Sequence record: MT446401.1
Reading direction: 5' to 3' (one strand)
DNA from: Escherichia virus TH27
Length of the DNA: 52,344 bases
This document shows, piece by piece, positions 6,494-52,344 of the stretch. Position 1 is the stretch's first letter; each line of letters begins with the position of its first letter. A program made the translations under genes and the position numbers. The notes below the pieces were generated by a model. It did not search any database and had not been told where the DNA came from. It worked only from the letters and a program-made list of their open reading frames with translations.

Positions 6494-7114
6494 ATGTCAA
6501 AGATTATCATTCTAAACGGCCCTGCTGGAGTAGGTAAAGACACTATCGGCAATGCACTGGTAGCAGATTACAACTGCATCCCTACCAGCTTCAAACGTCC
6601 GATGTTTGAGATTGCAGCATCCATCCTTGGGGCCAGGGCTTTTTCAAAGTTCATCACAGCATACGACGACCGCGATCAGAAAGAGCAGCCTCAGAGCTTT
6701 CTCGGTGGCAAGACCTGTCGTGAGTTCATGATCTGGATTAGCGAAACAGTGGTCAAGCCGCTTTTTGGCAATCAGCAGTTCGGCAAATTGATGAGCGAAC
6801 ATATCCAGCTGTGTGATGAAGGCTTCTGCTTTGTGTGTACTGATGGCGGCTTCCCTGATGAAGTGATCAGGCTCGTTGAAGATGGTCACAATGTTACCCT
6901 GGTCCGCCTGTTCATGGATGGCAAGACTTTCGCGGGAGATAGCCGTAATTACATCCGCATCAAGGAATCGCACTTCCCTGATTACAAGAAATATAACGAG
7001 CATGATGTGCATCTGGTAAATGGTGATGTTGATGATGGCGTCCTTAAAGTAGTTCGCGCTTGCTTGGTTAGTCCTTCAATGGATGATGATTGGGCCGACG
7101 ATATTCCTTGGTAA
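6494..7114 (+). CDS. P-loop kinase (206 aa), polynucleotide or nucleotide kinase-like, with acidic DDDWADDIPW C-terminus
   Basis: Walker A GPAGVGKDT at residues 9-17; start 1 nt after phosphatase stop; SSB-tail-like C-terminus. Confidence 0.75.
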   Translation: MSKIIILNGPAGVGKDTIGNALVADYNCIPTSFKRPMFEIAASILGARAFSKFITAYDDRDQKEQPQSFLGGKTCREFMIWISETVVKPLFGNQQFGKLMSEHIQLCDEGFCFVCTDGGFPDEVIRLVEDGHNVTLVRLFMDGKTFAGDSRNYIRIKESHFPDYKKYNEHDVHLVNGDVDDGVLKVVRACLVSPSMDDDWADDIPW

Positions 7115-9638: not shown

Positions 9639-10175
9639 ATGAAAGATGAAAACTTCACCAGTAACGCGAACGAGAAGGTTCGAATCGGTAACTTCAAGGA
9701 GCTATACAATAAAAAGTATGGCGACATTGCCAACCTGAACCATCGTCATCCAATGACGCCTGAGACTGTATTCAACCTGGCGGTTAAGTATTTCTCATGG
9801 GCCGAGGACCAGGCAATCAAGGCCATCGAAACGGCAAGTTTCCAGGGTGTTGTCACCGAGAACTTAGTGCATAAGCCTAGAGTGTTCACGCTTAACGGAT
9901 TCCAGCTTTATTGCGGCGTTACCTCCGGTGCGATCCAAAGCTGGCGCGCGTCGCCTGGGTTCTCTGAGGTAATGGAGTTCATCGACTCGGTAATCATTGA
10001 ACAGAAATACCAGCTTGCCGCGTCCAACCTTATCAACGCCGGATTCGTAGGCAAAGACATTGGTATCGAAAAGGCGGCAGAAGTCAACGTGCAAAACAAC
10101 GTATCGGCTAGCGCGGTGTCAGTGACTACGGATGAATTTAAAGAAGCCGTTAAGGATATTTTGGGGGAATTATGA
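9639..10175 (+). CDS. Terminase small subunit (178 aa)
   Basis: Position immediately upstream of and overlapping large terminase; size typical. Confidence 0.65.
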   Translation: MKDENFTSNANEKVRIGNFKELYNKKYGDIANLNHRHPMTPETVFNLAVKYFSWAEDQAIKAIETASFQGVVTENLVHKPRVFTLNGFQLYCGVTSGAIQSWRASPGFSEVMEFIDSVIIEQKYQLAASNLINAGFVGKDIGIEKAAEVNVQNNVSASAVSVTTDEFKEAVKDILGEL

Positions 10176-11758
10176 TCCAGTGGGAAGATCTCGACCTTGC
10201 AAGAAAGCAGGCAATAAAGGCGCTCTCTGAGCAGTCATTCGAAAAGATGTTGAGAATCTGGTTCCAGATCGGGCAGGCTCAGAAGTTCCAAAGCAACTGG
10301 CACTTCACCTACCTTTGCTGGAAGGTTGAACAGATCATCAAAGGCGAGGCGCAGAACGTGATATTCAACATCACGCCAGGCTCCGGCAAGACTGAGATCT
10401 TCTCAATCCACATGCCAGTATACGGGATGTTAAAGAGTCCGAAGGTTCGAAATCTGAACCTTTCGTTCTCTGATAGTCTGGTAAAGGATAACGGGATCAG
10501 GACGCGTGAGATTATCGGTTGCGATGAGTTCCAGGAGCTATGGCCTACCAAGCTGGCTAAGGCGTCCGGTGGCGATATTACCGCGCTGAATGATAACGAT
10601 AAGGCGTGGCTGACATTAACATCACGCGCGATCGGCGGCCAGGTAACTGGTAAACGTGGCGGATACATGGAAGATCCCAATAAGCCATGGAGCTTTACCG
10701 GAATGCTGACGCTTGATGACCCTGACAAGCCGAAAGATATGTACTCATCCGTCAAGCGCAAGGCGGCGCATACCCTGCTAAAAAACACCGTGCGATCACG
10801 TCGCATGACAGACAGGACACCGTGCGTTGTTGTGCAGCAGCGGCTACACGTTAATGACTCGACGTGGTTCCTGATGAATGGCGGCATGGGTGGCATGAAG
10901 TTTGAGCAGGTAATCATTCCTGCGCTGGTAACTGAGGAATACAGAGATACGATTCCTGACTGGTTGAAAGAGGAATTTGACAGAGACGTGCTATCCTCCC
11001 CATCGGTAATGATTGACGGCGTTGAACACTTCTCTTTCTGGCCCGCGAAGGAGAGCGCAGAGAGCCTACTGGCGTTGCGCGAAGCTGACCTTTACACGTT
11101 TGAATCGCAGTATCAGCAGAAGCCCATCGCGCTTGGCGGTAACGCGTTTAAGTCGGACTGGTTCCAGTATTACGGAGACGGCGAAAAAGCCAATATGCCA
11201 AAACCGGATCGCTTCGAATACCTTTTTACCACTGCGGATACCGCGCAGAAAGTAGAGGAAATACACGACTACAGCGTATTTGTTTTGTGGGGCAAGTATA
11301 AGGATCGCATATATTTCATAGACGGCATTCGAGGTAAGTGGGAAGCGCCGGACCTTGAAACGATGGCTCTTAACTTTTATGGCAACTGCTTTAAGTGGGC
11401 GAAGGAGAACAAGACGTCACTCCGCAAGGTTTACATTGAAGATAAGGCGAGCGGTACGGGCCTGATCCAGTCAATCAACAAGAAACTTCCGATTGACATC
11501 ACGCCAGTGCAGCGAGATACCGACAAGGTTACGCGTGCAATGGATGCAGCACCAATCATGAAAGCAGGGCGAATCGTGTTTCCTGAATCACACCCAATGC
11601 TTACTGAGATGGAGGCGGAACTGGTCGGATTTACCTTTGACGATAGCCATCCTCACGATGACATCGTGGATAACGTGGTTGATGCTGGCAACTTCGAAAT
11701 GAACTTACTTGATGATCCGGTAGCACGAATGAAACGATTAGCGGGAATGCGCAAATAA
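10172..11758 (+). CDS. Terminase large subunit (528 aa)
   Basis: Walker A-like PGSGKT near N-terminus, acidic C-terminal nuclease-like region; precedes portal. Confidence 0.85.
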   Translation: MIQWEDLDLARKQAIKALSEQSFEKMLRIWFQIGQAQKFQSNWHFTYLCWKVEQIIKGEAQNVIFNITPGSGKTEIFSIHMPVYGMLKSPKVRNLNLSFSDSLVKDNGIRTREIIGCDEFQELWPTKLAKASGGDITALNDNDKAWLTLTSRAIGGQVTGKRGGYMEDPNKPWSFTGMLTLDDPDKPKDMYSSVKRKAAHTLLKNTVRSRRMTDRTPCVVVQQRLHVNDSTWFLMNGGMGGMKFEQVIIPALVTEEYRDTIPDWLKEEFDRDVLSSPSVMIDGVEHFSFWPAKESAESLLALREADLYTFESQYQQKPIALGGNAFKSDWFQYYGDGEKANMPKPDRFEYLFTTADTAQKVEEIHDYSVFVLWGKYKDRIYFIDGIRGKWEAPDLETMALNFYGNCFKWAKENKTSLRKVYIEDKASGTGLIQSINKKLPIDITPVQRDTDKVTRAMDAAPIMKAGRIVFPESHPMLTEMEAELVGFTFDDSHPHDDIVDNVVDAGNFEMNLLDDPVARMKRLAGMRK

Positions 11759-31903: not shown

Positions 31904-32956
31904 ATGACAGAGCCACTGTTTCAATACTTCACCTCAGAAGAAATGAGCAACGACTTTTACCACAGCAAGGATGAGTGGACCGCCGATTATGTATCAGGTT
32001 CATCGCTGAGCAAGATTCACAGCACTTGCCCTGCGGCGTGGAAGTTTGAAATGAACTCAACGACTAAGGCGCTTGTCTTCGGTACGCAGTCGCATACCAA
32101 TTTCGAGAGTAAGGCACTGTTTGAACGCCAGTATCGTCGCGCACCAAAAGATAGCGAGATTGCAAACGTAATCACTAGCCAGGCGGCCTTGGCTACGAAA
32201 TTAAAATCATTTGGCCTGACTGGTACAAGCGGCAAGCAATATCCAGAGCTAATCAAAATGATGGTTGATTGCGGCGAAGACCTCAACGTCATGTGGCTGA
32301 TTGATATGATCGCACAATGTCAGGCGTGGGCGGATGGCGTGGAACTGGTTAAGGCGGAAGACTACGACGCTTGCGTAAGTATGCGCCAGGTTCTTGAAAT
32401 GATTCCTGAGCATAACGCTTGCATGAACAGCGAGACTGCATTCCGTGAGTATTCGTTGTTCGGCGTAATTTGTGGCGTTAAAGTCAAGGTTCGACTTGAC
32501 CATGTTGACATCATTAATGATCCAGAAGCCATCCGACGCATGGGTTACGATCCTGAGATTCACCCTGAAATTGTCGTCATCACTGATTACAAAACAACAA
32601 TGAGCGCCAACCCGACCGAGTTCCCGCGCCTGGCGTTCAACCTTGGGTATTACCTCAAGATGGCATTGCAGCGTGACCTGTTCGTCAAGTGCTTTGAGGA
32701 AACGCGACCTGTGGTTGTGCGATTACTGGCCCAGGAGAAGAAGGAGCCTTACTTGCCTATGGCGTACCGGATGAGTGGGGATCAGCTTAAGATTGGGCGA
32801 GCGCAGTACATGAGCGTGATTCACACCTTTTCAATGTGCGAAGCCAATGATGTGTGGCCTTCATACAATAATGGCGAGCCGGAAGTCGAACTGGAGACGC
32901 CGCCATGGGTAATGAAGCAATTTGAGTCAATACTATTAATTTCAATGAGAAATTAA
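31904..32956 (+). CDS. PD-(D/E)xK family exonuclease (350 aa), RecB/Cas4-like
   Basis: D..(13)..ITDYKT motif typical of PD-(D/E)xK nucleases; adjacent to Erf recombinase. Confidence 0.7.
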   Translation: MTEPLFQYFTSEEMSNDFYHSKDEWTADYVSGSSLSKIHSTCPAAWKFEMNSTTKALVFGTQSHTNFESKALFERQYRRAPKDSEIANVITSQAALATKLKSFGLTGTSGKQYPELIKMMVDCGEDLNVMWLIDMIAQCQAWADGVELVKAEDYDACVSMRQVLEMIPEHNACMNSETAFREYSLFGVICGVKVKVRLDHVDIINDPEAIRRMGYDPEIHPEIVVITDYKTTMSANPTEFPRLAFNLGYYLKMALQRDLFVKCFEETRPVVVRLLAQEKKEPYLPMAYRMSGDQLKIGRAQYMSVIHTFSMCEANDVWPSYNNGEPEVELETPPWVMKQFESILLISMRN

Positions 32957-33469: not shown

Positions 33470-34126
33470 ATGCGTACATCAGAGAAGTTTTCGAATGTTT
33501 CGGCCGCTCTAATTGCAGCTAAAAAGCAGTTTGCCATCGCAAAAAAATCAGGATTCAATACTCACCTGAAAACACATTACTCAAACCTGACGGACGTTCT
33601 GGAGGCCGTAGAGCCAGCGCTAAAAGAGCATGACCTTATGGTTATCCAGTCAAACCTGGACACGTCAACCGAGAAGGTTATGCACATTGAAACACTCATC
33701 CTTCATAGTTCCGGCGAGTGGCTTGCGTTCCAGTACAACATGCCGATCGAGAAGATTAGCGCCCAGGCTTACGGTTCAACAACCTCATACGGTCGCCGTT
33801 ACGCATTGTGCGCAGCGCTTGGAATCACTCAGAGCGATGACGATGCAGAAATCGCGAAGCGCACGGCAGCAGACTACAAAAAACTGATCACAAACTGTGA
33901 AAAACTGGAAGACCTCCAGGTCATCTATAAGAGCGCGAAAGGTTCACTTGGTGCGGCGGAATGGAAGATTGCAGAAGACCACTTGCAGAAGCGCAAGGCT
34001 GAATTGAGTATCGGTAGCGCTCGCGGTTTCCAGCCAGCCAAAAAGGCCGAGGCGCAAAAGGTTGAAGACAAGGTTGCAAATGCACCGTCCGAACCTGTAC
34101 AATCTGAATCCATCGAGCAATTCTAA
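33470..34126 (+). CDS. erf: Erf-family single-strand annealing recombinase (218 aa)
   Basis: SGEW...TSYGRRYALCAALGI..DDDA pattern typical of ERF family. Confidence 0.8.
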   Translation: MRTSEKFSNVSAALIAAKKQFAIAKKSGFNTHLKTHYSNLTDVLEAVEPALKEHDLMVIQSNLDTSTEKVMHIETLILHSSGEWLAFQYNMPIEKISAQAYGSTTSYGRRYALCAALGITQSDDDAEIAKRTAADYKKLITNCEKLEDLQVIYKSAKGSLGAAEWKIAEDHLQKRKAELSIGSARGFQPAKKAEAQKVEDKVANAPSEPVQSESIEQF

Positions 34127-34166: not shown

Positions 34167-34589
34167 ATGCCACACGTAATCACTGGTCAGATCCGTAAAG
34201 CACCTTTTACCAAAGAAGGCAGTAACAACAACGGGCGCTGGAAAATGTACGCCGTTGAACTGTCAGAACGCATGAAGATTCGCAATCAGCAGGGCGAGGA
34301 TGAGACGGTTTACAGCAACTACCGCGCCACGTTCTTCGCAAAAGAAAACGTTATGCAGTGGTATGATGAAGCATTCCAGGAAGGTAAGGTTGTATCAATT
34401 TCTGCCGACACTCTTCACTTGGCGTCACGCCAGGGTAATGATGGCACTGTGTATGTAACAGCTGAAATGATCAGGCCTCAGTTGCAATTCAGCCAGCGTG
34501 AGACGTCGCAACAGCGACAGCAGCCACAACAACAACAAAGACAGCAACCGCAGCAACAAAGCCAGTTCGATGACGATATTCCTTTCTGA
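34167..34589 (+). CDS. ssb: Single-stranded DNA-binding protein (140 aa)
   Basis: Gln-rich linker and C-terminal DDDIPF, identical to the bacterial SSB acidic tip. Confidence 0.85.
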   Translation: MPHVITGQIRKAPFTKEGSNNNGRWKMYAVELSERMKIRNQQGEDETVYSNYRATFFAKENVMQWYDEAFQEGKVVSISADTLHLASRQGNDGTVYVTAEMIRPQLQFSQRETSQQRQQPQQQQRQQPQQQSQFDDDIPF

Positions 34590-36928: not shown

Positions 36929-37873
36929 TTATGAATACTTATCTATCAGATCCTGAGGCGTATATAGCTTTCTTTCAAGGCCCATTCTGAAGTTCCCTCC
37001 GTTCGGCACAACCACTTTTAAATCTCGCTCGTCAGCCATGTAAAGCGCTCGCAAATCATCTGCCAGACACGCTACTCGTAACTCCCGATCGCCACGATAC
37101 CGATAAGCAACAATCTCAAGATTCTCAGGGGAGAAAGTCACCCACACTTCCTGATTGGTTGCCATCTTCACGCGGTAGCCATCAATAAGATCGCTTGTCA
37201 TATATATGGCCGCATCGGCCTCGCCACTCCCAAGCTTAACAACTGAGCCGCGAGAATAATCGCGAGCAAGGAAAGTGTATTCGCCATTATCATAAGCAAA
37301 CATGACGTTACACATATCCTCATCAATTCCGTCAGGGTGGACCATGTAGCACGGCAGTGCGTGTATTAGCTCCTCAGTGCCATTCTGGCGCATTTTTACG
37401 CCAACGTCATATGAATCTTCGGTTAAGCACTCATACACGCTTAAATCGGTGTTCTCGCGCTTTTCTGTGCGCTCCATTACTGCTACGCACGACTCATGAT
37501 CCGCCATCTTGCCAAGTCCTTTTTCCGGTACGCGCGACGCCCTGCGGTAAGCTTTAGCTTTGTAATCCTGCGGAACTTTGCCAAGGAATCGACCAAGGAT
37601 GTTAATCACTTCACTGTAAGGCTCACCAGTCAGCTTCATCATCCAGCCAACGCCCTTGTCGTTCCCACAACCGTTACATATAGCGCCACCATCACCTGGG
37701 GAGTCGAGTTCGTCAGTCCAACGGAATCGGTCCTTGCCGCCACAGTAAGGGCATGGCTGGTGCTTTTTATTGAACACGCCGGACTGCAATCCACAAATGG
37801 ATTGTAACGCCTCACGCCATAATCCTTTCATATACGGCAGTACTTCTTCTTTCTGGTAATTAGGTTCGTTCAC
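36929..37873 (-). CDS. DNA primase-like protein (314 aa) with N-terminal zinc ribbon
   Basis: CPYCGG...(19)...CNGCG zinc-binding motif; position in replication module beside helicase. Confidence 0.6.
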   Translation of the reverse strand: MNEPNYQKEEVLPYMKGLWREALQSICGLQSGVFNKKHQPCPYCGGKDRFRWTDELDSPGDGGAICNGCGNDKGVGWMMKLTGEPYSEVINILGRFLGKVPQDYKAKAYRRASRVPEKGLGKMADHESCVAVMERTEKRENTDLSVYECLTEDSYDVGVKMRQNGTEELIHALPCYMVHPDGIDEDMCNVMFAYDNGEYTFLARDYSRGSVVKLGSGEADAAIYMTSDLIDGYRVKMATNQEVWVTFSPENLEIVAYRYRGDRELRVACLADDLRALYMADERDLKVVVPNGGNFRMGLERKLYTPQDLIDKYS

Positions 37874-38491: not shown

Positions 38492-40594
38492 ATGGCTATG
38501 CGCATTAAATCCATTAAAAAACAGATAGAAGAACTTGGCCCGCAGAAGATCAAAGAGATTCAGGATAAATTCACGTTCGGTGACATGGTTCCTTATGAAT
38601 ATCAATGCGTGATGTATGATGAGATCGGAAAGCGCATTGCTCGTTATAAGCACCCATTCATCGTCAAGGCGTCGGTGTCGGCAGGTAAAACAATCGGCTT
38701 TGCCATGATCGCATCTCGCGTAAAAGAGATGGGCCTTTCGATGATGATACTGGCGCGCCAGGGCGACATTGTTGCTCAGGATAGTGAAGAAATCTCAAAC
38801 TTCGGCGTTCCTAACTCAGTTTATTGCGCTGGCCTGAACACGAAATCAGCTTACTTTCCCATCGTTGTAGGCTCGGAGGGTTCGGTTGCAAACGGTCTGT
38901 TTAAGGCGCTTGGTGATTTTACACCTATGGTGCTGGGAATTGATGAATGTCACCAGGTGGATTGGGAAGACCTTGCCGCCGCCATCGACAACGAAGAAAC
39001 GATCGAGATGATGCTCACTGAAAAAGATGAACGTGTGTTCGTTGACTACCCGAAAAACAGCGAAGGTTATGTCAATGGATACCTTGATGGTGTAGAGGTT
39101 GGCGTCCAAGTGATGGATAAGCAATTGCTGATAAGCAGGAAGACTGGCGAACCTGTTCTTGGCACCAAGCGAAGCCAGTACACGATAATCATCACTGAAT
39201 TGATGCGCCGATGCAAAGAGAAGAACGGGAAGGAATTGCGCATCTTCGGCATGACTGGTTCTGAGTTCCGAGGTACGGCCCCGATTGTTGTCGATAATCC
39301 TAAGTTGCCTGGATTCTGGCGTGAGCAGGTGACTAATATCGACACCAGCTACCTGATTGAGTTCGGCTCTGTTGTTCCAACCATCTTCGGAAGTGTCGGT
39401 GACGCTGGATATGATCTGGATGAGTTTAAGGCGTCCAGCCAGGATGGAACGGCAGACTTCGGTCAGAAAGAAATGAAGGCGATGGAGAAGAAAATCCATG
39501 ATAACGCCAGCATGACCAAGCGAATAATGGAGATGGTTGTCGAAGAAGCGAAGAAGCGAAACGGCGTACTGATTACGTGTTCAGGCCAGCGCCACTGCAA
39601 AGAGGCAGCGAGCTACCTTCCACCTGACGCAACCTATGAGATAATCACGGAGAAGACGAACACCAAAAAGCGACAAGCGATACTGGAGGCGGCGAACCGT
39701 GGCGAGATAAAATACATATTCCAGGTTGTGGCGCTAACCACTGGCGTTAACGTTCCGTTTTGGGATTTCTCTGTAATACTTCGCAAAATAGGATCGCTTA
39801 CACTGCTAATACAGTTACTTGGTCGTGGTATGCGATTGCTTAAGCCGTGGCAAAAAGCGATGGGAATGGTGAAAGAAGATCACCTGGTGTGGGATTTCGC
39901 TGGCACGATGGATGAGCTTGGTCAGCTTTACTTTGATCCGATTCTTGAAGAGGCTCAGTACCAGCGTCGCTTTGATGGCAAGAAAGAGCCGAAAAAATGC
40001 GAACTGTGCGGAACAGAGAACAGCTTTTACGCTCGCCGCTGCATTCATAAGGACGAGAGCGGCAATCGTTGTGAGTATTTCTGGAAGTCTCGCGTATGCG
40101 AAGACCAGGTTGATGATCGCACTGGCGAGGTGCTCGTTAAAGGATGTGGCGCTGAAAATGACGTAGTGGCTAGAATATGCCGTTGCTGCGACGTAAGCCT
40201 GAAAGATCCCAATGACAATCTGACTGGTAAGGCTTACACCAAAAACGACTGGTGCACAGTTAACAGTTTTGAAGTCACTCTGACACGTAATCAGACTGGC
40301 ATTCTTTATCGGTACGACCTGACAGACTCGGTGGGAGTTAACTTCATCGCTTATGAAAAGTTCTTCCCGCAGTCAACGGCACAGGTATGCCACACGATAT
40401 GGAAACAAAAAGGGGTATTACCTCACGTGCATGACAGTAAGATCGCAAAATTAATGGCGGCTTACAGAAGTGCCAAAATGATTTTAAACAACGCTCACCA
40501 CATAGCACATCCGGTGCGGGTAACTCACCGCAAGAATGCAAAAGGTGAGGATATTATCTCACGTAAGGATTTTGGATTGGACGGTAACTTATGA
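38492..40594 (+). CDS. SF2-type DNA helicase (700 aa) with C-terminal Cys-rich zinc-finger region
   Basis: Walker A SAGKT, DEAH-like GIDECHQ motif; C-terminal CxxC clusters. Confidence 0.8.
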   Translation: MAMRIKSIKKQIEELGPQKIKEIQDKFTFGDMVPYEYQCVMYDEIGKRIARYKHPFIVKASVSAGKTIGFAMIASRVKEMGLSMMILARQGDIVAQDSEEISNFGVPNSVYCAGLNTKSAYFPIVVGSEGSVANGLFKALGDFTPMVLGIDECHQVDWEDLAAAIDNEETIEMMLTEKDERVFVDYPKNSEGYVNGYLDGVEVGVQVMDKQLLISRKTGEPVLGTKRSQYTIIITELMRRCKEKNGKELRIFGMTGSEFRGTAPIVVDNPKLPGFWREQVTNIDTSYLIEFGSVVPTIFGSVGDAGYDLDEFKASSQDGTADFGQKEMKAMEKKIHDNASMTKRIMEMVVEEAKKRNGVLITCSGQRHCKEAASYLPPDATYEIITEKTNTKKRQAILEAANRGEIKYIFQVVALTTGVNVPFWDFSVILRKIGSLTLLIQLLGRGMRLLKPWQKAMGMVKEDHLVWDFAGTMDELGQLYFDPILEEAQYQRRFDGKKEPKKCELCGTENSFYARRCIHKDESGNRCEYFWKSRVCEDQVDDRTGEVLVKGCGAENDVVARICRCCDVSLKDPNDNLTGKAYTKNDWCTVNSFEVTLTRNQTGILYRYDLTDSVGVNFIAYEKFFPQSTAQVCHTIWKQKGVLPHVHDSKIAKLMAAYRSAKMILNNAHHIAHPVRVTHRKNAKGEDIISRKDFGLDGNL

Positions 40595-46337: not shown

Positions 46338-46528
46338 CCAAATCTTTGCACCAGCAGCAATAATTCACCTTCATTATTGCATAGAGTATGCTCATCACGT
46401 CGTCCGGCGCGCATGGATGAGTTAAGCATTGAAAGAAGGGCTTGGTTAAGCCCGTCCTCGCTAATCCCATTCTCAGAACTGCATCTGATTATCGCGTCGA
46501 TTACAACCTGGCTTTCCGAATAACTCAT
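46334..46528 (-). CDS. Possible small protein (64 aa)
   Basis: ORF ending at terminator; 5' end overlaps upstream gene by 56 nt; weak RBS. Confidence 0.3.
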   Translation of the reverse strand: MSYSESQVVIDAIIRCSSENGISEDGLNQALLSMLNSSMRAGRRDEHTLCNNEGELLLLVQRFG

Positions 46529-46847
46529 TATCGCTCATCTTCTCTATGTTCATCATCTCCCATGTATAGCGATCATTCTCACCGCCATAGCACCTGAAAT
46601 GAAATTCAAACGGCCTTTTTTGCGCCCCTTTGGACCAGTACCAGTTGTTTACGCCGTCAATGTATCCTTCGCCCATGCATCTTGCGATGAACTCCTTTGA
46701 GGCTGATGACGCGAAATAGCGAGGAGTAACGCCTGCGGCCTTAGCCAGTCGCTCACACTCCCTGTGCTTGTATATGAATACCGCCAGGTGCTGACGGTTG
46801 AATTTTTCATAGCCTTCGCAAAAACGGTACAGGTCCAGAAGAAACAT
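46473..46847 (-). CDS. Hypothetical protein (124 aa)
   Basis: ORF immediately downstream of the 527-aa gene on - strand. Confidence 0.6.
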   Translation of the reverse strand: MFLLDLYRFCEGYEKFNRQHLAVFIYKHRECERLAKAAGVTPRYFASSASKEFIARCMGEGYIDGVNNWYWSKGAQKRPFEFHFRCYGGENDRYTWEMMNIEKMSDNELFGKPGCNRRDNQMQF

Positions 46848-46850
46848 TAT

Positions 46851-48434
46851 TTACCCCAGCAATCTCGGATTAATGTAAATTTTATCACCAATCAGGCACG
46901 TATAGTTTTTCTCATCCAGCATAGGGATCAGGTGATCTTTGATGCGAGTCATTACACCAGCCTGGCCCTCGAATGGCTTAACCTTACGCGCCGCTTCATA
47001 TAGGGATCGGACACCTACAACGCCTTTCCCGTTCTTTCCTTGCTTTATCAGAATGTCAATCAGCTTGTTCATCTCCGCATGGTCGCCAGCGTGACCAGCA
47101 GCGTTGGCAGATGACAGATAAGTTTTACTGAGTTCCTGGAACATGATTACAGCTTCCTGCATTGTGTCAAGCTCAATCTCCCTGGACTTCTGCGGGCTTC
47201 CGCCATTTGGATTAAACCAGTTACGCACAGTGTGAAGAACTGCCGCGATCCTGATGGCCTGCTTATCGAACTTACCAAGCGCGCCGCGCAGCATTGTGTG
47301 TGAATACTTCCCGCCGTCCGCAAGGTGAGGCTCCATATCCTGACGCGCACGGTTGAGATATTTCATCGCCGACGTGCTAACTGTCAGATTCACTTCGTGC
47401 TCGCTCATGATTTCATGGACCAGCCGGAAGTAGTCCGCCTTGAGTCCGCCATCAATCGGCTCGTATGTTGATTCGCCTTTTTCGTCAACGAATACACGCT
47501 CGCCAAGGAATGACTTCTCACGCACAAGCAAGAAACGTTCTGACACACCGATACCACGCGCACCAGCATTCATGATCGCGTTGATTGTTTCATCCTGTGC
47601 AATTACAGAGATGCAACCCATCGCAATAAAGCTCATGTTATTGTCTGCGTTCGCACGCGCGATAGATACGTTACCAGCATCCCATGCTTTCAGCACAAGC
47701 TCGCTGTTCGTTTTCTTTGAGCCGTCACCATAGGTCATGCCTAAAAGTGAGTTCACGCTCGTTGCTTCATCCGAGATCACAGAGAAATTACCCTGGCGGT
47801 TGTTGATTCTCGCAAGACCTTCCGGCGTGGTGTCGGATACGGGGAATACGATGTCACAAAGGCGTTCCAGTTTTTCTTCCAGCTCTTCTTTTTCCTCAAA
47901 CAGCGCCGCCATGTCAGATGGTGATTTCTCCTGCTTCATCTCCTTGGATAGAGCGGAAAGCTTAGCCATAATCTTCTTGCGGTCGCGCTTTCTGATCTCG
48001 TTGAGTCGTTCAGTCTCTGCGATCATCGGGGCCAGCGAAAGTGAGTTAATGGCTGATTTACCCGTCGATGGCGGCTGACTGGTTACGACGTAGAGAGCGG
48101 TCGGCTGTTGTGTTCCGTGATACTCAACAGTAAAGCGGCCAAGCATGGCGGCTGATATGCATCCAAGGAAGTGCATATATGCGGACGACTCAGGGAACTG
48201 TACCGAACGAGCAGCATTGCTTGACAGCTTACCAACGACATCATAATCATTGCCAAGTGAGATAACCGGATACTTGTCACCGCCTGAGTCGATTTCTGTT
48301 GGAGCTTTCCAGAACGACTGGCTTTGCCTGTACCCGTTGGCGTTGATGGCAACGCGCAGAGGAGGCAGGTTGTCGGCAGCAGCTACAGCCATCACCTGAT
48401 CGATAGACAATTTATCTTCGTTAAAATCAAACAT
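46851..48434 (-). CDS. P-loop protein with C-terminal winged-helix-like domain (527 aa), possible replication/primase-associated protein; full-length paralog of 1046..1579
   Basis: Start 48434 chosen (RBS AAGGAG; MFDFN matches paralog start); Walker A-like PPSTGKS; function uncertain. Confidence 0.75.
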   Translation of the reverse strand: MFDFNEDKLSIDQVMAVAAADNLPPLRVAINANGYRQSQSFWKAPTEIDSGGDKYPVISLGNDYDVVGKLSSNAARSVQFPESSAYMHFLGCISAAMLGRFTVEYHGTQQPTALYVVTSQPPSTGKSAINSLSLAPMIAETERLNEIRKRDRKKIMAKLSALSKEMKQEKSPSDMAALFEEKEELEEKLERLCDIVFPVSDTTPEGLARINNRQGNFSVISDEATSVNSLLGMTYGDGSKKTNSELVLKAWDAGNVSIARANADNNMSFIAMGCISVIAQDETINAIMNAGARGIGVSERFLLVREKSFLGERVFVDEKGESTYEPIDGGLKADYFRLVHEIMSEHEVNLTVSTSAMKYLNRARQDMEPHLADGGKYSHTMLRGALGKFDKQAIRIAAVLHTVRNWFNPNGGSPQKSREIELDTMQEAVIMFQELSKTYLSSANAAGHAGDHAEMNKLIDILIKQGKNGKGVVGVRSLYEAARKVKPFEGQAGVMTRIKDHLIPMLDEKNYTCLIGDKIYINPRLLG

Positions 48435-48487
48435 TAAAAAACTCCTTAGTTGGTGCGCTAATGTTAACGCACCTATGGTAAAACCGC

Positions 48488-48503
48488 TTGCCAAAAAATG
48501 CTA
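48488..48503 (-). promoter_or_regulatory. Variant palindromic box (TAGCATTTTTTGGCAA) after stop of upstream gene
   Basis: Read on - strand directly after stop at 48505; followed by hairpin ggtgcg/cgcacc. Confidence 0.35.
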
Positions 48504-48504
48504 C

Positions 48505-48858
48505 TTATTTGTATTGCGATTCCCAGCGGTATGTTCCGCAAAGTGATACGAAACCAACATCTTCATCACGGTAAAGCTGCCATGCATGACCTTCATTGTC
48601 GAAGATGTAACCAGCATTACTGCCCAGACCAGCGTGCATATCCACTAAATATCGCTTACCTTCAGTGAAATCCTTTTTAACGGAGGACTTATGATTGACC
48701 TTTGTCACGTAAAGGGTTTTAGTCTTAATGTAGCGACCTTTGATGTCCAGGTTAACCCACTTACCATTGACTTTAATTTGCTCTACCTCATCTTTAATGC
48801 GGGCTTTAAAAAGTTTATTATCTGAACTTACAAAATTCTTGCTTATCGTGGTAGCCAT
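48505..48858 (-). CDS. Hypothetical protein (117 aa)
   Basis: RBS AAGGGAAAATAA; downstream of box/-10 module. Confidence 0.7.
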   Translation of the reverse strand: MATTISKNFVSSDNKLFKARIKDEVEQIKVNGKWVNLDIKGRYIKTKTLYVTKVNHKSSVKKDFTEGKRYLVDMHAGLGSNAGYIFDNEGHAWQLYRDEDVGFVSLCGTYRWESQYK

Positions 48859-48896
48859 GATTATTTTCCCTTAGTGTGTTTCGTTTTGATGAGATG

Positions 48897-48939
48897 AATA
48901 TACAGGAAAAGCCCCGAAGGGCTTTAGCAATTAGTGCTA
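48897..48939 (-). promoter_or_regulatory. Palindromic box plus -10-like TATATT (- strand) with CATCAAAACGAA leader
   Basis: Box 48923..48939 supplies stop TAG of the 50-aa gene; 20-nt gap; hexamer complement 48897..48902. Confidence 0.5.
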
Positions 48940-49089
48940 TTTCTTTGCTGCTTTTGCAATTGCCTTTTGCGTGATGTTGAAGCTCTCGATCAAATCTTCC
49001 TTGAAATAATCGCCAACGGGCCAACCCTTACCGCTGTACTTAGCTATGGTATCAAGATCGTAGTAGTTCAAATCGGATGGCTTGAGCAT
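48937..49089 (-). CDS. Small protein (50 aa)
   Basis: ATG right after upstream TAA; RBS AGGTGA; stop TAG is first triplet of the box; below ORF-track cutoff. Confidence 0.5.
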   Translation of the reverse strand: MLKPSDLNYYDLDTIAKYSGKGWPVGDYFKEDLIESFNITQKAIAKAAKK

Positions 49090-49329
49090 TTATTTCACCT
49101 CGTCAAACGTTGCGATTCCAGGGATAAACATTCCGACCTTCCAGCCTGCGATAGCAATCCAGCCAGAATCGTGCTTGTGCGGTCGCTCAGCGCCATTAAT
49201 CACCCACTCGTTCGGGATTGTCTTACCGTTAATGATTAGCGGATCAGCGTCGTATACAGAGCCTTTTACGAATGGCGTTAAGACCTTCTTGTCGGTGCTG
49301 CTGATGCAATTTGTGCATATCACTTTCAT
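49090..49329 (-). CDS. Hypothetical protein (79 aa)
   Basis: ATGA coupling with upstream HNH gene. Confidence 0.65.
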   Translation of the reverse strand: MKVICTNCISSTDKKVLTPFVKGSVYDADPLIINGKTIPNEWVINGAERPHKHDSGWIAIAGWKVGMFIPGIATFDEVK

Positions 49330-49844
49330 AATTTACCGCCATGATTTTCGTTAAAGTTAAATATTTTATTTGCCTCATTCCTTGCGGCAACCGCATCATC
49401 AATGTTCTTAAATGTTCCAAGTTTGCGATTTACTCCATTACTAACAACTTGAGCAACAAAAACCTCATCTCTTTTACACCAATGTATTCCAGTGTGCCCG
49501 CTTTTATTGTCACTCCTGATTTTCTGGTTTTTTGCGTTACCTGATTTATCTGTCATTGATAGATTCTCTATCCTGTTATCATCCCTGATCTTGTTATTAT
49601 GGTCTATAACCTTGGTAACATCCGGTTGTCCTTTGAATATAAACCATACAATCCTATGAGCCGTGAATCTCTCGCCCTTGAATCCCACAAGCCTATATCC
49701 AGTGGCTTTACTTATGCAGCCACACTCCCTTCCTGTTCTATCTATTTGCTTTCTTGATGGTGGTGTTTTCTTCCAATAAAGCCTGCCGTCAATGTATTCA
49801 ATATAATCAACTATATCCTCCGGTATCTGCTTTGCTACTTTCAT
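49326..49844 (-). CDS. HNH-AP2 homing endonuclease (172 aa)
   Basis: YIDGRLYW..., HRIVW, IDHNNKIRDDNRIENL motifs; AT-rich; paralog of 33031 and 44399 genes. Confidence 0.75.
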   Translation of the reverse strand: MKVAKQIPEDIVDYIEYIDGRLYWKKTPPSRKQIDRTGRECGCISKATGYRLVGFKGERFTAHRIVWFIFKGQPDVTKVIDHNNKIRDDNRIENLSMTDKSGNAKNQKIRSDNKSGHTGIHWCKRDEVFVAQVVSNGVNRKLGTFKNIDDAVAARNEANKIFNFNENHGGKL

Positions 49845-49853
49845 GGTCTCGCC

Positions 49854-50069
49854 TTAGAACGGTATTCCGTCGTCAAATTTTAAGCGGTAGTCGAAGTCAT
49901 CCCCGATTCCGTCTACTGACTGGTTGCTTTCGCTTTCAAGATCCATATCCATAACGCCCAATGCGTCATCGAGTTCAATGCATCCGTAAGCAACCTTGAG
50001 CGCCCACTCTTCATTGAGTCCGGCTTTAAGTGCCGCGCGGTGGCGGCTCCAGAAATTATCTTGATGCAC
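49854..50069 (-). CDS. Small acidic protein (71 aa) ending in SSB-like tail FDDGIPF
   Basis: GTG start 3 nt after upstream stop with GGAG upstream; C-terminal DFDYRLKFDDGIPF-stop. Confidence 0.6.
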   Translation of the reverse strand: MHQDNFWSRHRAALKAGLNEEWALKVAYGCIELDDALGVMDMDLESESNQSVDGIGDDFDYRLKFDDGIPF

Positions 50070-50072
50070 TGT

Positions 50073-50297
50073 TTAGCTCCAGGAATTGATGTAAAGTGAG
50101 TTATCGTTTAACAGGTTAACCATCTCTGCGCTGGTGAGGCTACGGATGATTGCGCCCGGATGCGTGCCAACAACGTAGCGATCGAACTCACGGCGCGTGA
50201 TGGTGATTTGGCTAACGCCTGCGGAGCGGTCCAGTTTGATGATTGCACGGCCTTTGGCTTCGATGTGAGCGACTACGTTCTGAACTTTAACTGACAT
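50073..50297 (-). CDS. Hypothetical protein (74 aa)
   Basis: RBS AAGAGGAAG; preceded by about 185-nt leader with two direct repeats. Confidence 0.7.
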   Translation of the reverse strand: MSVKVQNVVAHIEAKGRAIIKLDRSAGVSQITITRREFDRYVVGTHPGAIIRSLTSAEMVNLLNDNSLYINSWS

Positions 50298-50328
50298 TTT
50301 TACTTCCTCTTAGGTTTTGATGTGGTTT

Positions 50329-50424
50329 TCGTTGCTCCGGCCTACGTTTGCAACTTCCTGCCTTGTGGGTTTGCCACATCGTTTTGAAACGTCTTTCGTT
50401 GCTCCGGCCTACGTTTGCAACTTC
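50329..50424 (-). repeat. Two copies of a 29-bp direct repeat (50329..50357 and 50396..50424) in the leader of gene 50073..50297
   Basis: tcgttgctccggcctacgtttgcaacttc occurs twice, 67 bp apart; each copy has gttgc/gcaac inverted repeat and TTGCAA. Confidence 0.8.
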
Positions 50425-50458
50425 TCACCCTTCGTGAGTGTTTCGTTTCGATGAAATG

Positions 50459-50501
50459 ATTATGCCTCAATCCGTGAGGCTTCGTTTAGCAATTCGTGCT
50501 A
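50459..50501 (-). promoter_or_regulatory. Palindromic box plus -10-like CATAAT (- strand) with CATCGAAACGAA leader
   Basis: Box 50485..50501 directly after stop of 50503..50934; hexamer complement 50459..50464; leader 50442..50453. Confidence 0.5.
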
Positions 50502-50502
50502 T

Positions 50503-50934
50503 TTACCGATTTTTCGGTGGGCGGCGAACATAAGCGTAAAACGGCGTCGGACCGATTGGCGGCTGATAACCAGTCAGGAGGCGATTACTTGCTTCCGTGG
50601 CGCGCGAAACTGCTACGTTCTGTTGAACGGCTGCCACCTGGCCTCGGCGGAACAACCGACTTTTGCTCATTCGTTGGTTAGTGCCACATAACTCCATATA
50701 CTGATAATCCCACGGATCGAGCGCAACTCTCTTATCCATGAACACCTTGCGGCTACTGGAAACGAACACCTTACTATCCTTTAGTCGTGCAGCGCGGCGG
50801 AACATCTTATACGTCGCCTCATGCATTTGAACCTTAAAGCGCCAGGCTCCGTAAGCCCAAATATACATCCGGAATGATGTCGTGACGAAGCGGGTAGTGC
50901 CGTCAGTGTGCTTGTAAATTACGCCGTGTTTCAT
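50503..50934 (-). CDS. Hypothetical basic protein (143 aa)
   Basis: ORF ending at palindromic box. Confidence 0.7.
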   Translation of the reverse strand: MKHGVIYKHTDGTTRFVTTSFRMYIWAYGAWRFKVQMHEATYKMFRRAARLKDSKVFVSSSRKVFMDKRVALDPWDYQYMELCGTNQRMSKSRLFRRGQVAAVQQNVAVSRATEASNRLLTGYQPPIGPTPFYAYVRRPPKNR

Positions 50935-50944
50935 TTGCCTTCCC

Positions 50945-51154
50945 TCAGATTAGTGAAATTTCGACGGTGATTTTCGCCTGACCAATTACCCGCGCACCGC
51001 CAGACAACAACGCGCATTCAATGATGTGCCCATCCATCGCGGTTGTTTGTGATGGCAGACCATCCACCATGCGGAAGATTTCGGACCGTGAGTTGTCGCA
51101 ACTGATCAGATACTCGTTGCCGCTCCCGATAAATTGCACAATGTCAAACATCAT
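50945..51154 (-). CDS. Hypothetical protein (70 aa)
   Basis: Start moved to ATG at 51154, which overlaps upstream stop (ATGA). Confidence 0.55.
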   Translation of the reverse strand: MMFDIVQFIGSGNEYLISCDNSRSEIFRMVDGLPSQTTAMDGHIIECALLSGGARVIGQAKITVEISLI

Positions 51155-51336
51155 TTCTGTAGCTCCGTTTCGTAGTATTCGTAGGTATTGAACCGATCTG
51201 TTGCGTTCATCTTCTCGCAAACCTGCTCAGCCATTTGCTCACTGAGGCACACGCAGTGAAAATGAGAATCATATTCCGGCCCGCGTGGCTCAGCCATCAC
51301 GACGTAGCAATACATTTTAACAGTGGTCATGATCAT
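51151..51336 (-). CDS. Hypothetical protein (61 aa)
   Basis: ORF coupled to neighbours on - strand. Confidence 0.5.
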   Translation of the reverse strand: MIMTTVKMYCYVVMAEPRGPEYDSHFHCVCLSEQMAEQVCEKMNATDRFNTYEYYETELQK

Positions 51337-51614
51337 TTCTTCCCGTCGAATGTTAAATAGTTAGCCTGTAAAGTAATGCCGTAGTCATGAGCGATGGTCG
51401 TGTGCGGACGGACGATGATAATCACCTTATCCGTTTTCTTGTCACGCAGAACAGAGTCGCCATTCTCAAAGATGCAGACAGTTCTATCAGTAATGCCTTT
51501 AGTCACTTCAATGCATCCGTAGAATCGCTGCACTGCACGGATTACCGCGTCGTTCTGTTTAGCCTGAACCTCAACCTGCATACGGTAGGCCATTTGCTGA
51601 ATATCGTGTTTCAT
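51333..51614 (-). CDS. Hypothetical protein (93 aa)
   Basis: ORF coupled to neighbours. Confidence 0.6.
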   Translation of the reverse strand: MKHDIQQMAYRMQVEVQAKQNDAVIRAVQRFYGCIEVTKGITDRTVCIFENGDSVLRDKKTDKVIIIVRPHTTIAHDYGITLQANYLTFDGKK

Positions 51615-51796
51615 GCTTTTGCTCTCTTAGTTGTCATCCAATCGTGTAGCGCCTGAACGTCATCGGCGAATACACTCGCCTGCTTATCACTTGCGCCGCG
51701 CTTCTTCGCGTATTCAACCGCCTTGACGCGATCTCCATTGTACAGGGCAATGCAATCCTCAATGCTCAGGGAACTGGTGTCTTCAAACTTAATCAT
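51611..51796 (-). CDS. Hypothetical protein (61 aa)
   Basis: Start moved to ATG at 51796 with RBS AAGGAG; first gene of right-end leftward operon. Confidence 0.55.
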   Translation of the reverse strand: MIKFEDTSSLSIEDCIALYNGDRVKAVEYAKKRGASDKQASVFADDVQALHDWMTTKRAKA

Positions 51797-51807
51797 CTTC
51801 TTTCTCC

Positions 51808-51869
51808 TTCGTTTCGATGTGATGAATGATATCCAATTCAATCTGATCGGTCATTAGCAAAAAGTGCTA
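51808..51869 (-). promoter_or_regulatory. Palindromic box plus -10-like element (- strand) with CATCGAAACGAA leader
   Basis: Box 51853..51869; leader complement 51808..51819. Confidence 0.45.
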
Positions 51870-51897
51870 TTCGTTCGATTTATGGATTGTTGCAGCT

Positions 51898-51990
51898 ATT
51901 GCAATGATTCACTTCACTATTGCACATATAGCAATATTGCATCGTTTGCAATGATGTTTTCAATTGTTGCGAATTGAGCAATGATTCATT
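51898..51990. repeat. Cluster of TTGCAATGAT-like direct repeats spanning the start of the terminal repeat
   Basis: ttgcaatgattc, ttgcacatatagcaatattgcat, ttgcaatgatg, gagcaatgattc within about 90 bp; non-coding. Confidence 0.6.
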
Positions 51991-52344
51991 GATGGGGGGA
52001 ATGATGGGGTGAGATTCGATCCCATGATCGCCTGGTGGGATTTTCCCGCCACACATTTCATCTATGTACGCGTTATGGTTTGTTCAACTTTGTAGATATT
52101 TGGCAATGTCTACGCCATTCACGCGGAATTACGCGCTGGTTACAAAATAAATCCCTTATATAACAACCTTTTATCTATATTATTATTATTATTATTATTA
52201 TATGTTATTCCGTAACCAAGATTAATTGGGATATTGATGATATTTTTTTTGATATTGCGCGGCGCATGAAAATTGGCATAAAGAGATGGATATGCAAGTA
52301 GGGCAAAAAAGTGATGTACATCGTTCTACGGCAATAACATCCTT
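51943..52344. repeat. Right copy of 402-bp direct terminal repeat (matches 1..402)
   Basis: Visual comparison with 1..402. Confidence 0.85.

Follow-up and report, generated by a model that had tools for sequence, protein, structure and literature searches.

A small protein of T1-like phages ends in a peptide that resembles the C-terminal tip of SSB

In Escherichia coli, the last nine residues (MDFDDDIPF) of SSB, a protein that binds single-stranded DNA, form a tip that recruits at least 17 partners, that on its own accounts for peptide binding to RecO, PriA and PriC as well as to the chi subunit, and that transiently binds SSB itself at its DNA-binding domain (PMC7145534). Phage annealases likewise require the SSB tail (PMC11846896; see also PMC5928155 and PMC13490951). 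When bacteria maintain their genomes, this tip is the central signal for docking, and efforts are under way to target it with antibiotics.

Functionally, this docking peptide of SSB is the nearest counterpart of the locus analysed here, and two groups of phage proteins offer further comparisons. In phage T7, the SSB gp2.5 and the helicase-primase gp4 carry acidic, Phe-terminated tails that dock at the same sites of the T7 DNA polymerase, and gp4 is the nearest precedent for a phage replication protein other than SSB with an SSB-like tail and a shared docking site. The second group comprises Ocr and gp5.9 of T7 and Ugi of PBS2, which mimic the ligand of a host DNA enzyme by presenting a folded surface that resembles DNA.

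We analysed the 52,344-nucleotide sequence of Escherichia virus TH27 (MT446401.1), hereafter the window, which contains a gene for a 71-aa protein, the tip protein, with likenesses to each of these systems. As in SSB, the tip is an extreme C-terminal Ile-Pro-Phe-COOH preceded by Asp and with an aromatic residue at -7, and it is placed on a linker that is disordered in SSB and predicted to be so in the 71-aa protein; the same phage encodes both. Unlike SSB, with its tetrameric OB-fold domain, the tip protein has a three-helix head of about 44 residues and, in contrast with the SSB tip, the acidic run of its family is optional, the tip is often joined to a Cys knuckle, and endings in Trp or PFW occur. 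There is no sequence relationship with the T7 proteins, and the tail resides on a separate 71-aa protein encoded near a helicase, and on a kinase, rather than on the helicase itself; unlike the T7 polymerase, its receptor may be a host protein. The tip protein is, like Ocr, gp5.9 and Ugi, small, strongly acidic and encoded among small phage genes, and it may likewise mimic the ligand of a host DNA enzyme, although it would mimic a short linear peptide. Neither sequence nor fold likeness to Ocr, gp5.9 or Ugi was found with Pfam, PHROG, PDB sequence searches, Foldseek or BFVD. In the full-text literature searched, which covers a part of the journals, neither a natural mimic of the SSB tip nor the family PHROG 9085/9323 is described, and a function or structure of this family was not found either.

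The 71-aa protein and its gene

Among the records nearest to the source phage, a T1-like siphovirus of the Drexlerviridae, are those of Escherichia phages TH30, XT34 (genus Nouzillyvirus), ESCO41 and CJ19. An initial annotation of the window had reported an ORF whose product ends in FDDGIPF, and its coordinates proved to be exact (Table 1); the strand, minus, was missing from that description, and direct translation of the plus strand over the same interval gives no open frame and many stops. The ORF starts with GTG and spans 71 codons, the product being MHQDNFWSRHRAALKAGLNEEWALKVAYGCIELDDALGVMDMDLESESNQSVDGIGDDFDYRLKFDDGIPF, with the C-terminal stretch ...DDFDYRLKFDDGIPF and the stop codon directly after Phe71. 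The computed pI is 4.2 and the net charge about -10, with about -8 for the C-terminal half. The preceding 74-aa gene, whose TAA ends 3 nt before the GTG, contains a GGAG ribosome-binding site in its final codons; this position of the GGAG suggests that translation of the tip-protein gene is coupled to that of the upstream gene.

Table 1. Features of the window and of one comparison genome referred to in the text
Feature	Coordinates	Strand	Basis or remark
dNMP kinase-like P-loop protein, 206 aa	6494..7114	+	PHROG 139
Tip WADDIPW of the kinase-like protein	7091..7111	+	
Exonuclease VIII-like gene	31904..32956		Adjoins SSB region
Erf-like annealing protein	33470..34126		Adjoins SSB
Phage SSB, 140 aa, Q/P-rich linker	34167..34589	+	Translation, PHROG 44
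Tip FDDDIPF of the phage SSB	34566..34586	+	
DUF3987 / PHROG 2373 DNA helicase	46851..48494	-	Downstream anchor of ST5-ST6-(inserts)-ST7-helicase cassette
HNH endonuclease	49326..49844	-	Pfam HNH_3, PHROG 99; inserted directly after tip-protein gene
Gene of the 71-aa tip protein	49854..50069	-	ORF list, PHROG 9085/9323, T1 ST6 orthologue
TAA stop codon of the tip-protein gene	49854..49856	-	
Tip FDDGIPF, residues 65-71	49857..49877	-	Extreme C-terminus; resembles SSB acidic tip
Linker, residues 45-64, acidic, predicted disordered, hypervariable	49878..49937	-	AF2, column entropies
Head, residues 1-44, three-helix domain (predicted)	49938..50069	-	Alignment A1, AF2
Ribosome-binding site GGAG	50077..50080	-	7 nt upstream of GTG, read from sequence
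Upstream partner gene, 74 aa, T1 ST5-like	50073..50297	-	PHROG 4344; profile match, locus comparison
First direct repeat	50314-50357		
Second direct repeat	50381-50424		
Unannotated 89-aa ORF ending ...WEYVEELPF, Cronobacter phage ESP2949-1 (locus L005)	10086..10355	-	Coordinates of that locus

The AF2 model of the protein contains three helices (residues 6-15, 20-28 and 33-44, with pLDDT of about 72-76) and no strands, and pLDDT falls below 50 over residues 45-61; the C-terminal half is thus presumably disordered. Alignment A1 shows 15 invariant positions in the head (F6, R9, R11, A13, G17, L18, N19, W22, V26, Y28, G29, A36, L37, G38 and M40), after which comes a DMDMDxES motif, and for a second family member, of the Cys-knuckle type, AF2 gives the same head and a low-confidence tail. 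The reading of the initial annotation, a decoy made of a tail on an acidic body, is weakened by this conserved head, which is predicted to be folded. No OB fold was detected in the 71-aa protein, which has no match to the SSB profiles of Pfam, NCBIfam or PHROG and is modelled by AF2 as three helices, so it is not an SSB. Its succession of disordered linker and acidic IPF tip is that of SSB, and the predicted layout as a whole would correspond to an SSB with the OB fold replaced by another head.

The head itself gave no recognisable fold or family in Pfam (with strict thresholds or E up to 1), NCBIfam, a PDB profile search or a Foldseek search of the PDB (best E=3.7), and its matches in BFVD were only uncharacterised phage relatives. 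Likewise, Pfam, NCBIfam, PHROG, PDB, Foldseek and BFVD yielded no homologue of known function for the complete protein. The same head module recurs, without the tip and with different C-termini, in larger phage proteins: PHROG 4823 proteins of ~162 aa encoded next to baseplate genes, a 226-aa protein encoded beside head genes, and proteins of 217-309 aa with a C-terminal Zn ribbon. Larger proteins with the head and the DMDMDxES motif include P0068, P0076, P0086 and P0087 (L008 8001..8681; L009 2344..2832), which end, in place of IPF, in another conserved short motif, FDE[YF]LAGG..., followed by an acidic/aromatic stretch; this suggests a head with exchangeable C-terminal 'addresses'. Another multidomain relative, P0084, is labelled 'Phage_Mu_gp6', but a Pfam scan did not reproduce this label, which probably refers to its Zn-ribbon C-terminus.

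Between head and tip, family members carry one of two forms of segment: an acidic one devoid of Cys, found in the window lineage and in the T1 group, versus a commoner one with four Cys residues (CxCx5-6CxxC) that is situated directly ahead of the tip, as in ...DCGCRGSAYCNECIPF and ...CGCNFDPSCKRCFPF. Members with the Cys form are P0039-P0077 and those in loci L005, L006 and L013-L022, with an IPF or FPF tip. The Cys motif looks like a zinc knuckle that would present the tip, and the window lineage and the T1 group appear to have replaced it by the acidic segment. No ordered knuckle was seen in the AF2 model of the Cys-knuckle member, zinc being outside of what AF2 models.

Conservation of the tip and its likeness to SSB

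The tip protein belongs to the uncharacterised family PHROG 9085/9323 (E=1.9e-35 and 3.6e-23, the match with E=1.9e-35 spanning residues 1-71), which tblastn detected in 457 phage records. Their hosts are Escherichia, Klebsiella, Shigella, Salmonella, Citrobacter, Enterobacter, Cronobacter and Pantoea, and all the records inspected that have an assigned taxonomic family are Drexlerviridae. The orthologue in T1 is ST6 (YP_003939.1), with 55% identity and ending in DDYIPW. When 1.84 billion cluster representatives were searched with a profile, 38 matched; P0053 and P0082 were discarded as false positives of this search because they are tandem-repeat proteins. Plasmids gave no match in tblastn, and the family appears to be restricted to phages in the collections searched. 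Several records mislabel the small gene as 'putative cytosine DNA methylase', or have overlapping 'TamB' labels.

As a test put forward with the initial annotation, we looked for orthologues that had lost the tail, and found that it persists. Among 76 single-domain members, 64 end in IPF, four in IPW, two in IPFW and two in LPF, with one each in FPF, VPF, EPF and ISF. When the family was reduced to 26 representatives with no more than 50% identity, the terminal residue was Phe or Trp in all of them, and Pro occupied position -2 in 23 and position -3 in two more, which end in PFW. In this set, the last three columns had entropies of 0.7, 0.6 and 1.4 bits, and those from -4 to -25 had 2.2-3.8 bits; the 20-30 residues ahead of the tip are hypervariable across the family. 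Asp or Glu is present at -5 in 18 of the 26. In alignment A1, I69, P70 and F71 are invariant. The acidic run is DDG in the window protein and its lineage, and is absent from the CKRCFPF/CPRCFPF subfamily.

At the DNA level, the codons of the tip vary synonymously across 17 loci (CCA, CCG, CCC or CCT for Pro, and TTT or TTC for Phe), and the gene downstream differs, being an HNH endonuclease here, a cytosine methylase in many genomes and other ORFs elsewhere. Both observations argue for a constraint on the peptide instead of on an overlapping DNA signal, and the alignments thus indicate that selection acts at the protein level. Since the tail is kept despite the hypervariability of the segment that precedes it, comparison of the homologues further indicates that it is a selected functional element resembling the SSB tip. 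As in SSB-Ct docking peptides, the motif closes the protein with an aromatic residue that bears the free carboxylate, and purifying selection acts on Pro at -2 and on the hydrophobic residue at -3. In many genera, the gene directly 3' of the tip gene is a DNA cytosine methyltransferase gene (L014-L022, L024).

The SSB of the phage, identified as such by PHROG 44 ('single strand DNA binding protein'), ends in ...QQSQFDDDIPF, the perfect SSB tip that the initial annotation had assigned to it; its T1 orthologue, ST27, has an identical tip. Six of the seven terminal residues are identical between FDDGIPF and FDDDIPF, including Phe at -7, and a close homologue of the tip protein, P0038, ends exactly in DDDIPF.

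We also evaluated how often such endings appear in the window, where the six-frame translation has the tripeptide IPF with a frequency of 1.9e-4 per position. An ending of the type [ILVMF]P[FW] is found in three of 927 stop-to-stop ORFs with 30 aa or more and in three of 379 start-to-stop ORFs with 40 aa or more. Each of the three is a real gene whose product has acidic residues right ahead of the tip: SSB, the 71-aa protein and the dNMP kinase. The same scan of T1, ESP2949-1 and Motto retrieved only SSB, the orthologue of the tip protein and one unannotated ORF, in ESP2949-1, whose EELPF ending is probably due to chance, as its homologues in T1 and Motto lack it. The ending is not strictly copied from SSB, because ST6 ends in IPW and SSB in IPF in T1, and the kinase in IPW and SSB in IPF in the window, a comparison that involves complete genomes, the relatives with LPF or VPF endings being on contigs of 1.3-5.8 kb that do not include SSB.

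The dNMP kinase and the helicase cassette

The third tip is borne by the kinase-like protein, in which the match to PHROG 139 (deoxynucleoside monophosphate kinase) covers only residues 1-189 and is followed by an acidic extension ending in SPSMDDDWADDIPW. Among 97 closer homologues, the ending is [IL]PW in 82 (DDIPW in 60 and DGLPW in 11), in the pattern [DE][DG][IL]PW, and most of these have Trp at -7. The extension is missing from all 23 homologues of the more remote clade, and ST62 from T1 likewise lacks the tail. These sequences suggest that, in the window lineage, the kinase acquired a tail like the SSB tip, with the pattern aromatic-x-D-D-I-P-aromatic. As the role of decoy is not open to an enzyme, the tip of the kinase must, as far as can be deduced from sequence, be a localisation tag; this implies, in turn, that a receptor for such tips exists and that its occupancy would benefit the phage.

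The tip gene is part of a cassette in which the order ST5, ST6, variable inserts, ST7-like gene, DUF3987 helicase and ST10-like gene is maintained from T1 to a metagenomic relative (L004). The ST5-like gene was detected ahead of the tip gene in 12 of 14 annotated Drexlerviridae genomes examined, and visual inspection recognised it in the distant locus L004. The window has the HNH endonuclease gene and small ORFs as its inserts; the HNH gene is probably a mobile homing-endonuclease insertion, because it is absent at this position from the close relative XT34 (L025). In Enterobacter phage N5822 (MW032452.1; L013 2201..2707), the ST5-like and ST6-like sequences are annotated as one CDS of 168 aa in a single frame, a possible fusion that is a faint hint of cooperation between the neighbours and that comes from a record with an odd 78-kb 'circular' assembly and two matching places.

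The initial annotation had situated the gene downstream of a repeat leader. Direct repeats do exist, two copies of 44 nt with 89% identity and a 31-nt exact core (AAGTTGCAAACGTAGGCCGGAGCAACGAAA when read on the minus strand), each with an inverted repeat GTTGC...GCAAC, but they are in the leader upstream of the ST5-like 74-aa gene and not directly upstream of the tip ORF. Their core has no exact match in any of 25 fetched loci, and they may correspond to a promoter, an RNA structure or an iteron. A scan of positions 46500..52344 for promoters and terminators did not exceed the expectation from shuffled sequence.

The replication genes of the window include those for a primase, two helicases, SSB, Erf and an exonuclease. 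The primase maps to 36929..37873 and the helicases to 46851..48494 and 38492..40594. No DNA polymerase is annotated in T1 or was found among these genes, and the phage therefore presumably replicates with host Pol III. Host Pol III contacts SSB through chi (see also PMC3632105).

Possible roles of the tip

By analogy with SSB, docking of the tip in the pocket that receives the SSB tip would be the most economical reading, and our results suggest that the phage may employ the tip peptide as a movable tag, by which it reaches or blocks the proteins that usually dock on SSB. Several observations count against the likeness to SSB: the CKRCFPF/CPRCFPF subfamily has basic residues before the tip, the T1 protein ends in IPW, and Webervirus members end in IPFW, with the terminal carboxylate displaced by one residue. 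The reading that we prefer, to which we assign a probability of roughly one in three, is that the 71-aa protein is a tethered adaptor in two parts that docks through the SSB-tip pocket. The terminal Pro-Phe and its free carboxylate would enter the pocket of a replication or recombination protein, the candidates including the chi subunit of Pol III, PriA, DnaG, RecQ, ExoI and RecO in the host, and the Erf annealase or a helicase in the phage. The docking site would be shared with the phage SSB and, in the window lineage, with the dNMP kinase. The head would make a second, specific contact, with a partner that is conjectural because neither a fold nor a family was recognised in this domain. The most likely site of action would be the phage replication fork, where the protein would serve as an accessory of the surrounding DUF3987 helicase cassette and might connect it with the replisome or primosome of the host. 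A common transcription unit may, however, be all that the synteny with the helicase reflects, and in other phages the head domain is found in neighbourhoods unrelated to replication.

Adaptor and targeted inhibitor are not separated by sequence alone. A targeted competitive inhibitor, which we hold to be somewhat doubtful, would plug with its tip the SSB-tip pocket of a single harmful host enzyme, with its head attached to a neighbouring surface. Its candidate targets, named with equal reserve, would include exonuclease I, RecQ and RecJ, or else a nuclease or helicase of host defence that associates with SSB, and the head would lend affinity and specificity over the tails of SSB. The protein is indeed small and very acidic and is encoded among small uncharacterised genes at the genome end, features that typify proteins of host takeover; the variants of the tip and the hypervariable stretch that joins it to the head, either acidic or with a Cys knuckle, would fit an arms race or retargeting, and the bipartite build suits a plug of high affinity. 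The phage also relies on its own recombination by exonuclease VIII and Erf, and host ExoI would degrade the 3' ssDNA intermediates of such recombination (as known from sbcB and recombineering). Against an inhibitor, the same tip is present on the phage kinase and SSB, which suggests that the phage also wants the receptors usable; moreover, Pfam, PDB, Foldseek and BFVD searches showed no likeness to any known inhibitor, and the literature searched contained no report of toxicity or anti-defence activity. The tag on the kinase and the synteny tilt the choice slightly towards the adaptor.

An unlikely alternative is that the hydrophobic-Pro-aromatic end docks on a receptor outside the SSB interactome, for instance a partner specific to the phage, and that the resemblance to SSB in the window lineage is convergence or coincidence. 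Only the last three positions are conserved family-wide, many members lack the acidic run (e.g. CKRCFPF) and some end in Trp or PFW, and the commonest form joins the tip straight to a putative Zn knuckle (CxCx5-6CxxC-IPF), in contrast to the flexible tip of SSB. In the window lineage, however, the match extends to seven residues and includes Phe at -7, an acidic residue is frequent at -5 in the representatives, the kinase tail shows the same aromatic-x-D-D-I-P-aromatic pattern, and the motif is otherwise limited to SSB in four genomes.

It is quite improbable, in our opinion, that the tip binds the ssDNA-binding cleft of host or phage SSB and thereby modulates loading or release of SSB. The SSB tip is known to bind unoccupied DNA-binding domains of SSB (PMC7145534), and the strongly acidic C-terminal half would resemble a DNA mimic; such an interaction is, however, weak and displaced by ssDNA, and would leave both the conserved head and the tip of the kinase unexplained.

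The least probable role, and a very improbable one, is the main idea of the initial annotation, that of a pure stoichiometric decoy whose free tails titrate all SSB partners with an irrelevant acidic body: its small size and the identity of its tail with that of SSB would agree with it, but the head is the best conserved part and an independent module, and the abundant phage SSB already supplies the same perfect tips, so that a monovalent decoy would add little and would hinder the phage's own SSB. The adaptor that was originally offered as an alternative fits better than a decoy with the tip on the kinase and the linkage to the DUF3987 cassette, its mechanism being one that we infer.

More broadly, and still tentatively, T1-like phages might treat the SSB tip as a transferable address, appended to proteins as unrelated as a three-helix effector and a dNMP kinase, to join the SSB hub of the host. 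The 71-aa family might then be the first natural mimic of the SSB-tip peptide, acting either as a bridge between the helicase cassette and Pol III or the primosome, or as an inhibitor that plugs the pocket of a nuclease or helicase. If this reading were true, a host could not escape the mimicry without losing the contacts of its own SSB. It would also explain how T1-like phages, devoid of a polymerase, connect the host replisome with their helicase, their primase and their supply of nucleotides, and would provide a simple, searchable rule for proteins that hijack the hub, namely acidic-IPF/W at the end of any protein other than SSB. Abundant and unannotated, the family is also present in phages of Escherichia, Klebsiella, Salmonella and Shigella that are candidates for therapy, and small carriers of the SSB tip, if phages have evolved them, would be natural probes or inhibitors of the SSB hub.
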